Positions 45,001 to 48,000 of a DNA stretch of 64,000 nt are shown piece after piece. Position 1 is the stretch's first letter, and each line of letters begins with the position of its first letter. This DNA comes from Phycisphaeraceae bacterium. GTDB lineage: Bacteria; Planctomycetota; Phycisphaerae; Phycisphaerales; Phycisphaeraceae. The DNA is taken from positions 3,904,001 to 3,968,000 of the forward strand of contig OY771506.1 in assembly GCA_963674705.1 (NCBI GenBank). Direction: 5' to 3'. The position numbers are program-made.

Positions 45001-48000
45001 AAAGATCAACCCGCCCACGATGTTGGCAAGTAGCGTAGCGTTCTTGATGTGCAGGCCGGTCGGCTCAAGCATACCCAGTTGCAGCATGCCCCAGATGCCG
45101 ATCGCGCCAACGATGATGGCGGTCAGCATGGTCTTGAGCACGGTGAAGTCCTTCATCAGGAATTGCCCGATGATGACGTTGTACCGCGTCACACCACCAC
45201 GCTGTAGAAGCAGCCCGAATACCAGGCCGGTGACAAGCCCGGCAATCAACATCGAACCAGAATCAAAGCTCCACATGATCGCGTCCTTTCATACCGAATA
45301 ATGCGAATGCCGTGACGACGCCCGATGCAAACATCGCAAAGAAGAAGGTCCATGAACCCACTGTTAGCTGCAGCCCGCCGGAGATGCCGTGCCCTGAAGT
45401 GCAACCGCCCGCCATACGTGCGCCGAACAGTAGCAGCACGCCACCGATAAACGCCGCGATATACCGCTTCATCTTACTGGGCCCAAACCGAGCCGCCCAG
45501 ATACTCGGCACATGCTCAACAAACTTATCCCTTGCCAGCAGCTTCGATCCAACCAACGCGCCGCCGACCAGTCCGATCACCAGCATGAACTGCCAGTCGA
45601 ACATGTTCTTCTTAGGCGGGGCAAAGTACTTGGCGTAATAAGCATTGGATTCGACATGCTCCGGCGCGACGATACCCGTCACGCAGCCGGAGATATGGGC
45701 CATGGTCGTGCTGGTACCCAGCGCTTTACCCATGCCATAGAACGTGACCCAACTGAGTACACCGATCAATGCCCCGACAAGGTAGGGGCTCCATCGTTTT
45801 CGTCCGAGTAATGTGCACGCAATCGGGCAGGATTGTTCCTGGTCTGCTTGCATTTTCATGCTCCGTAAGGGGTAGGGGATAGTCTTGTAGGACGATCCGA
45901 GGCAGCACGAATACTCGCCGTAGGATCGCGTTGTATATCAGCAGGCCTTGGCCTATTCGGCATTACACCTGTGTCTGTGGATACATTGGATCACGTTGAT
46001 CGCATTGGGATTGTCCACCCGGTAATAAGCCGTGCGTCCTTCGCGCTCGACATCGAGGATGCCATGGGCCCGCATGTGGTTCAGATGTTGACTGACCGCG
46101 CTCGGCGCAAGGTCGACCGCTTCGGCCAACTCCCCGACGCTCAGGCGTCCACCCATCAACAGCTCAACAAACTTCAGCCGATGCGGGTGCGCCAGCACAC
46201 GCAGCACGCGTGCGGATTCCTCAAGCATCTCAATATCCAACGGCGGTTTGATCGCTTGGCTCATAGTGTCAATATATCAATGGATTATGATATGTCAAGG
46301 TGTGGATTGGGGAAATATAACAAGGAGGGGCGTATCTATATGATATTACTTGGCTTGCGCAGATGTCAGATTAATAGGCTCGCCACATTCTGGGCAGGTT
46401 GCGGCATCGCTTCTACCTCGTAAGTTATAGCCACAGCTATAACAATCACCAAGCCTGGGTTTCCTGGTCAATCTAAAAGCGATGTGAGTCAGAGGTAAGG
46501 CTATGAGCAATAGCAGTAGGATCCAAGATGGAAACGTGGTTTCCCACTCATATTGATCCGCTTCCCAGTCAAAATGCCACCAACCTGATTTGTATCCATC
46601 TGCCATCGTTTCTGAAATTGGCCTGATGTAAAAGCATCCTGTTGGTATGCGTCCCAGATCGCTGTCCACAACCGTTACCAAGCCAGGTGACATTTCAAGC
46701 ATGTGGTAGCCAATCGGTGACTTGTGTATGAAAATATTCAGTTGATAGAAGTAGGACGTGACCCAAAGTGCGAAGCAAACGGCTATACATAAACTGCTAA
46801 TACATAAAGCTACTGAGCGCCCTCGGCCATGTTCCTTCAGCACCCGTCTCATATCACTTCCCCGCACTCCGGGCAGGTTGTAGACTCTTTGCTGCCACGC
46901 AGGTCGTAGCCGCATTCGTTGCAACAGCCAGTATTAATTGTATATGACCGTCTGTAAAGCAAAGCAAAAATCGGCCAGATACTTGATACCACCACGAAAA
47001 TCCACAGCGGAATAACATTGATCAAAACCCCGCCCGCATCTATGAAATCAAACCATCCGAAGACTCTTGATGGCGTAAGCCCTGCGATACTGAAGTGGAA
47101 GTGCATGCTCTTGTATGTCTCTCCGGCATTCGCAAAAACAACACACAGTTGCCCATGATTTAATTCAATCGCGATGCCCGGATAGTAGATCACGGTGTAC
47201 GAAACCAGAGATAACAGCCATATCCCGTGAACGAATACTGCAAACAGTGACGTTATGATGAGAACGCACCGAAAGACCGATCCGGTACTTCTCGGCTGAT
47301 ATCTCATATCACCTCGCCACACTCCGGGCACTCCAGCTTCGACAAGCCCTTGAGGATATAGCCGCACTGCCTGCAGCGGCATTCGCGATCGTACTTCGGC
47401 CGCAGTATGAATATGAATGCGAGCACGCTCGTCGCACAGGTCAGGGCGGTCATGGGGATGCCGATCAGGCCTATTCTTATCAACTGCATCCACCAGAATC
47501 CCGGAGGCAGAGGGGCGTTCGCGACCTTGAGTTGGATAAACATAAGCAGATTACTGAACGCGACGCCCACCACCGTGCCGCATGCCACCGCGATCAGGAA
47601 CCGGCCGACGCCGCGTCTGGTTATCTGCATGTCGCTCCAATCAACAGGAATAGATCATATCGTCTGCCTAAGACATACCCGGATGCCCATACGTAGCCTC
47701 CGGCATGAGGTTCATCATGATTCCGGCGATTCAAGCCGTCAAGATATGTGGTCCAGACCACCCATTGCATACCCCCGGGCCAATCGCCTATACTTTCCTA
47801 ATTGGCCGGCCGCGTGCCCGAGTGGACTAAGGGGGCTGATTGCAAATCAGCTAGGCTTCGCCTGTCGTGGGTTCGAATCCCACCGCGGCCTTTTCGACCC
47901 GCTTTCATAGCGGGTCTTTTTTTGTCGTGTGTCTACTCGCCCGCCAGCCTCATGAGTTCGGTTTCGACCGCGTCAAACATGTAGCCGATCATCAGGGCCC

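Follow-up and report, generated by a model that had tools for sequence, protein, structure and literature searches.

The division of tRNAs into class I, with a variable loop of 4–5 nt, and class II, with a variable region of more than 10 nt that forms a stem-loop (as defined in PMC7609411), is taught as fixed, and in bacteria the long arms are ascribed to the tRNAs for Leu, Ser and Tyr, plus Sec (excerpts of PMC9976931, PMC7609411, PMC5766645, PMC13433404 and PMC5370408). The class II arm is contacted by the cognate synthetase for Tyr, Ser and Leu (excerpt of PMC5766645), and how many arm bases are left unpaired makes a difference among class II tRNAs (excerpt of PMC9976931). A long-arm bacterial tRNA-Cys has been published in the form of selC* (PMC5389517; reviewed in PMC7609411), which is a tRNA-Sec-like, accessory molecule with an 8/4 branch, linked to selB* and cysS*, and has been shown to be cysteinylated by CysRS. 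The nematode nev-tRNAs, as described in the excerpts of PMC3333845 and PMC4300185, carry a class II arm on a non-Leu/Ser anticodon and are leucylated in vitro against that anticodon.

The gene considered here is a tRNA-Cys(GCA) of 84 nt that lies within a window of 64 kb, the whole stretch of DNA that was analysed. It shares with selC* the long arm, U73 and the GCA anticodon, but it is a 7/5 housekeeping tRNA in a genome with one ordinary cysS, and has no 8/4 branch and no linked selB* or second cysS*. With the nev-tRNAs it has in common a class II arm beside an unexpected anticodon, which by itself is no sign of recoding; unlike them, it has identity elements and a codon use in line with its anticodon, that is, with cysteine. 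The canonical class I tRNA-Cys(GCA) of sister Phycisphaerae, 73–75 nt in length, has the same 7/5 cloverleaf, G1-C72, U73, GCA anticodon, 3-bp D stem and purine 13-22 pair, with a body identity of 78–93%, and differs in the variable region, which measures 4–6 nt in the short forms and 12–18 nt with a 2–5-bp stem in the long ones. Finally, the class II tRNA-Tyr(GUA) resembles the window gene in U44, an arm of 3–4 bp, two unpaired bases and C48, often in the stem sequence, and in the G9/G13/A22 core, whereas C35 and U73 replace the U35 and A73 of tRNA-Tyr, and the acceptor, anticodon and T stems are those of tRNA-Cys.

An essential housekeeping tRNA crosses the class line in most of a bacterial family, and it can occur in a genome in which no other cysteine tRNA is found. 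The literature searched yielded no account of a long-arm tRNA-Cys of the 7/5 type from Phycisphaerales or from phages, allowing for a passing mention in a table; the housekeeping tRNA-Cys in this class II form, usual in one family and likely of ordinary function, is apparently undescribed. Our preferred reading, which we hold to be highly probable from the sequences compared, is that of a native housekeeping tRNA-Cys to which a paired hairpin was added, and which is likely charged with cysteine directly by the ordinary CysRS, which would recognise U73 and the GCA anticodon and likely tolerate the arm rather than read it.

Structure and genomic setting

The gene stands alone and is the sole tRNA called by ARAGORN in the window. 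It matches Rfam RF00005 with 56.5 bits (E 1.6e-9), the variable region contributing an insert of 11 columns, and by minimum free energy it folds into a cloverleaf that has one additional helix of 4 bp (z −2.49; 3 of 200 shuffles were equally good). These three lines agree with the first-pass annotation, which had described a housekeeping tRNA-Cys(GCA) with a base-paired long arm, and they support the assignment of a true class II-type arm: the variable region (Table 1) lies outside the class I range and forms the stem-loop that defines class II. The D stem has 3 bp.

Table 1. Features of the tRNA-Cys locus, in window coordinates
Feature	Position	Strand	Description
Candidate σ70-type promoter	47765..47794	+	-35-like hexamer 47765-47770, 18-nt spacer, -10-like hexamer 47789-47794; found by eye
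tRNA-Cys(GCA) gene	47808..47891	+	7-bp acceptor, 5-bp T stem, G1-C72, U73, G15:C48, G9/G13/A22 core; CCA not encoded
GCA anticodon	47842..47844	+	
Long variable region	47852..47866	+	15 nt: U44, 4-bp stem 47853-47856/47860-47863, 3-nt loop, two unpaired bases, C48; tRNA-Tyr-type geometry
Intrinsic-terminator-like hairpin and T run	47896..47923	+	8-bp hairpin at 47896-47916, directly 3' of the gene; 1 found against 0.3 expected in shuffles

The hexamers upstream of the gene likely act as a σ70-type promoter; the -35 element matches at only 3 of 6 positions, and the site was not reported by a consensus promoter scanner. Similar hexamers precede many tRNA-Cys loci of the family. The neighbours are a GH20 gene, sulfur-transport genes and unknown ORFs, none of them related to translation. 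At a distance of 2–5 kb upstream of the tRNA there are two PF04143 genes for sulfur transport and one for a pyridine-nucleotide disulfide reductase that has a rhodanese domain, and two tandem genes of the acetate kinase family lie downstream (42983-45859(-) and 49779-52076(-)).

The source genome (G000) holds one further GCA tRNA, a short tRNA-Cys at C1:622805-622877 within an array of 30 tRNA genes; the first-pass mention of this accessory copy proved correct. It could share the decoding load, which counts against the preferred reading.

Pairing, covariation and geometry of the arm

Covariation was followed in 20 distinct tRNA-Cys copies, picked for their equal length of 83 nt. All 60 of 60 arm cells are paired, two-sided changes occur at all 3 arm pairs, as the earlier report of a covarying arm had implied, and none of 500 shuffles reached the covariation of the whole structure. 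Covarying stems are present in all five helices, and the 7-bp acceptor and the 5-bp T stem are 100% paired.

These data bear on the possibility that the long gene is a non-working relic or an assembly artefact while decoding is left to the short copy in the array. A short array-type tRNA-Cys is indeed found both in the source genome and in G116, but such a relic is exceedingly improbable given the covarying helices, the promoter-like and terminator-like sites flanking the gene, and the recurrence of this arm and 3' half in two further genomes from the genus. Moreover, in G045 (a single contig, 99% complete) the long gene is the sole detectable tRNA-Cys: a loose pattern gave 36 matches there, for which ARAGORN called one tRNA-Cys and one tRNA-Ala.

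The long arms of the source genome were compared for stem length and for the bases left unpaired before position 48. The Ser arms have 6–8 bp and no unpaired base, the long Leu arms 3–4 bp and one, the Tyr arm 3 bp and two, and the Cys arm 4 bp and two before C48. Two unpaired bases were found in 22/22 tRNA-Cys copies of the family and in 19/19 tRNA-Tyr genes fetched. A wider genome scan scored this geometry in 54/83, most exceptions belonging to a single type of arm, whose two mismatched pairs are misread by simple scoring. The two-unpaired-base, Tyr-type geometry might persist by preventing recognition by SerRS and LeuRS, and U73 and C35 would guard against TyrRS, so that the Tyr-type arm would be the one class II geometry that a tRNA-Cys can carry safely.

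Cysteine identity and the cysteinyl-tRNA synthetase

U73 is a main determinant of cysteine identity, to which the G15-48 core also contributes, whereas TyrRS needs A73 and U35 (excerpts of PMC9976931). The window gene combines the GCA anticodon with U73, and U73 is present in all 26 family loci parsed, although the pattern that retrieved them did not demand it. TyrRS is ordinary.

One cysS was found by motif in the source genome, with its catalytic motifs intact, and CysRS was found in all 50 genomes searched. The enzyme of the source genome conserves the counterparts of E. coli R427, D436 and R439, residues with a presumed role at the anticodon. At the positions of E. coli R423 and D451, which presumably take part in anticodon reading, the anticodon domains of CysRS in the family mostly carry other residues, and they lack the terminal Trp, in long-arm and short-arm genomes (L313:203-1660(-), L333-L362); most other families retain the Asp aligned to D451. 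At one locus, L375 (G037:C52:115366-116951), the cysS match is split in two with one TGA inside, possibly by a frameshift or an assembly error.

Co-evolution of CysRS with the arm was considered and rejected. Among 41 genomes of f1 and f2 no CysRS column tracks the arm, the best p value being 0.0014 out of 3920 tests and not significant after that number, and the D451-equivalent change occurs throughout the family, in long-arm and short-arm genomes alike.

Codon use agrees with cysteine. At conserved Cys columns of CysRS, 28 long-arm genomes retain Cys in 82/84 cells, and Cys occupies 0/224 cells at conserved Tyr columns, 0/168 at Ser and 0/448 at Leu. In the ORFs of the source genome the ferredoxin motif CxxCxxCxxxC occurs 22 times, compared with 0 in 5 shuffles, and CxxCH occurs 147 times, compared with 6–11. 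UGY codons are read as Cys and sit at cysteine positions; recoding of UGY left no sign either in these motif counts or in the CysRS alignment, which represents one protein.

Another route to cysteine would have SerRS load serine by way of the long arm and a PLP enzyme convert it to cysteine on the tRNA, as for Sec and Sep. Serine identity does lie in the arm and the tertiary shape, independently of the anticodon (excerpts of PMC9976931 and PMC7609411), and SelA and a tRNA-Sec are present in the source genome. This serine route is nonetheless barely credible: the Cys arm, of 2–5 bp, has the Tyr geometry and not that of the 6–8-bp Ser arms, an ordinary CysRS is found throughout the genomes searched, the one SelA is the only one found by motif, and neither SepRS nor SepCysS gave a match over the cut-off, which also argues against an indirect Sep route. 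Direct charging by CysRS is most likely the way in which the long tRNA-Cys would deliver cysteine, with ordinary cysteine decoding as the likely outcome.

Origin of the tRNA body and of the arm

Over 58 non-variable positions, the body of the long tRNA-Cys is 93% identical to the short tRNA-Cys of the family, 78% to the tRNA-Cys of other orders and 72% to tRNA-Tyr, and its acceptor, anticodon and T stems match the short tRNA-Cys of sister families. Since the rest of the molecule is Cys-like and not Tyr-like, the arm was added onto a native tRNA-Cys, and a shift of anticodon in a whole tRNA-Tyr gene was rejected on the same body identity.

The Tyr-type geometry of the arm could also be taken to mean that a tRNA-Tyr gene was recruited to cysteine by changes of the anticodon and discriminator, possibly with residual tyrosine charging and ambiguous UGY codons. 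Two further likenesses point the same way: a GGC...GCC stem occurs in 21/51 distinct Cys arms and in 18/19 of the tRNA-Tyr arms fetched, and the G9/G13/A22 core is common to the Cys, Tyr and Ser tRNAs of the source genome. Such recruitment is, however, very improbable in view of the body identities just given, the A73 and U35 that TyrRS needs, the absence of Cys from conserved Tyr columns, and the difference between Cys and Tyr arms within each genome compared, which also led us to reject ongoing gene conversion from tRNA-Tyr.

Under the preferred reading of a hairpin added to a native tRNA-Cys, the arm may have been copied from tRNA-Tyr, have arrived with a phage tRNA-Cys or have grown in place. 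The proposed origin is a first copy from tRNA-Tyr or arrival with a phage tRNA-Cys; derivation of the arm alone from tRNA-Tyr is given somewhat less than an even chance.

The G9/G13/A22 core helps to trace this history. In the order it is present in 98/103 long forms and in 7/8 short family-type forms, and it is found in 0/13 short forms of f2–f5 and in 0/31 forms of other orders, while 5 long forms have the ancestral A9/A13/A22. This distribution of a 5' marker agrees with an exchange of arms that spares the 5' half, and it suggests that many short forms of the family are secondary losses. A structural coupling of the core to the arm, strong within the order, is absent from viral tRNA-Cys, where the core occurs in 45/71 short and 34/57 long copies (p 0.72); the core is accordingly taken as a lineage marker only.

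Distribution in Phycisphaerae and other bacteria

A length-neutral pattern, counted by hand, matched tRNA-Cys in 113 of 121 genomes of the family, of which 92 have long forms only, 20 short forms only and 1 both, in keeping with the first-pass statement that the long arm is the usual form there. When a long-only pattern was applied to genomes of the order that are at least 90% complete, it matched 33/45 in f1, 21/46 in f2 (including the chance match G400 and the unpublished genome G364), 2/11 in f3 (one being a different tRNA body), 1/46 in f4, 0/11 in f5 and 1/1 in f24. The presence of the arm in part of the sister family f2, also noted at first pass, holds with the exception of that chance match. 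Of 172 genomes that represent other orders in the class, none has a variable loop of 10 nt or more, although 171 of them matched the length-neutral tRNA-Cys pattern; the long-arm form was not seen in these orders, as had been proposed. Four of the 172 have an 8-nt loop. This intermediate loop is seen at L033, L036, L038 and L047, in 4/18 genomes of family f7, which belongs to another order.

A scan of 185,579 species genomes gave at least 119 loci with a pattern that required C71, C72 and U73, so that small lineages elsewhere could be missed. Among the 119 matches listed, 75 have this tRNA-Cys body (71 recognised by script and 4 by eye), 4 are selC*-like, 3 are actinomycete copies of another body, a few are odd genes or genes with a 10-nt loop, and the rest are chance or offset matches. 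The records of the 75 are titled Phycisphaeraceae, Phycisphaerales, Phycisphaerae or Planctomycetota, apart from one "uncultured bacterium", and no other large lineage with this body appeared among the matches listed for C71-C72-U73 genes in those genomes.

Several odd GCA-type tRNAs outside Planctomycetota are found among L229, L223, L224, L281, L259, L266 and L197. In this set, an Acidobacteriota gene combines a long arm with an anticodon loop of 8 nt, a Vannielia gene has a region of 19 nt, unpaired loops of 10 nt occur in Halobacteriovorax and Nitrospira, and actinomycetes carry long-arm copies amid other tRNA genes. The selC*-like tRNA-Cys genes (L176, L246, L286 and L290), with arms of 21–22 nt, come from Terriglobia, Desulfopila and a proteobacterial MAG. 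In addition, the genome G234, in which the housekeeping tRNA-Cys is short, has a further tRNA-Cys of the long-arm kind, which differs in body and has a 5-bp arm, two unpaired bases and U73 (L306; G234:C32:16775-16860, -).

Long-arm tRNA-Cys in viruses and cultured phages

A long-only scan of viral contigs yielded 114 loci, of which 75 are tRNA-Cys genes whose anticodon and T stems are intact, with many unrelated bodies among them. Long forms made up 4 of the 91 full tRNA-Cys in a viral sample that was length-neutral. The geometry of the viral long copies is looser, with two unpaired bases in 35/75 and no stem, under simple scoring, in 20. Long-arm 7/5 tRNA-Cys genes are also present in cultured phages, where GenBank/RefSeq records label them as tRNA-Cys with no comment. 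Examples are Cronobacter phage Pet-CM3-4 (NC_055726.1) and Rhizobium phage B1VFA (MT770738.1), whose annotated genes of 82–84 nt are, like the window gene, long-arm tRNA-Cys; that of Pet-CM3-4 has a 3-bp arm and two unpaired bases, and is 78.5% identical to the window gene over nt 13–77. The phage genes differ from the window gene in being accessory and of diverse bodies. Long-arm tRNA-Cys is therefore not unique to the Phycisphaerales lineage, being present also in numerous viral contigs and cultured phages. The viral contigs L064, L069 and L140 contain only the 3' half of a tRNA-Cys, long arm included.

Lability of the arm and integration at tRNA-Cys

On a CysRS tree of 48 rows, made by a quick search, enriched for short forms and with three partial rows dropped, the arm state changes between 9 times (the number forced by starred branches) and 14 times, and it is no more clustered than shuffled labels (91/500). 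Sisters of the same genus differ in arm state (G188/G274 and G116/G102). The arm is a labile trait, not a fixed one, in the family and its relatives, and the near-identical long and short sister versions offer natural pairs for studying the gain of an arm, the geometry that would avoid SerRS and LeuRS, and whether the arm matters to CysRS.

Integration provides one route by which the arm could be exchanged. In G010 and G030, an intact tRNA-Cys is followed by a tyrosine integrase and then by a displaced 3' half, at 37.6 and 8.6 kb, respectively. Because these displaced halves start in the anticodon arm and include the whole variable region, integration could swap arms while sparing the 5' half, and integrations that replace the 3' half would move the arm into and out of genomes. 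Other fragments in G010 have arm loops unlike that of the intact gene. Among the genomes examined, neither a long intact gene with a short displaced half nor the reverse was found, so the swap route is one that we infer. Five loci (L297, L298, L299, L300 and L301) are tRNA-Cys integration sites, with islands of about 37.6, 20 and 8.6 kb separating the intact gene from a displaced 3' half and tyrosine integrases confirmed in two.

Against a purely tolerated arm stands its being paired in about four fifths of the family genomes, which is more than pure neutrality might give. It could instead be under positive selection, as a binding or folding element for the family's CysRS with its diverged anticodon domain, as a shield against anticodon nucleases or as an aid to another partner. 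The presence of a fully paired arm in 92–93 of 113 family genomes would fit such selection, as would the loss from the family CysRS of the residues aligned to R423 and D451 and the recurrence of long-arm tRNA-Cys in unrelated phage bodies. We nevertheless consider selection on the arm clearly unlikely, since short-arm members of the family show the same CysRS changes, no CysRS column follows the arm, the same-genus sisters differ, and the sequence and length of the arm (2–5 bp) vary freely among long copies.

A broader proposal, in which the order would be converting an essential class I tRNA to class II, combines several of these elements: an arm from tRNA-Tyr or from a phage would have been grafted on the native tRNA-Cys, spread with integrating elements and been kept for an advantage, such as compensation of a weakened CysRS anticodon domain or escape from tRNA-cutting nucleases. 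This conversion is unlikely; if true, it would repeat in nature the way in which the tRNAs for Tyr, Ser and Leu acquired their arms.

Other tRNAs of the source genome

The tRNA array (C1:622407-634804(-)) contains, besides its short tRNA-Cys, short-loop tRNA-Leu(CAG) and tRNA-Leu(CAA), a long tRNA-Leu(UAA) and a tRNA-Ile(UAU). Outside the window, a stand-alone tRNA-Leu(UAA) of 73 nt with a 5-nt loop (C1:4149863-4149935(-)) represents the reverse case, a class II isotype devoid of its arm. Of the tRNA-Sec calls made by ARAGORN, the second, at C1:708446-708537(-), is devoid of a normal T loop and probably spurious, and the tRNA-Sec at C1:1821572-1821664 looks real.
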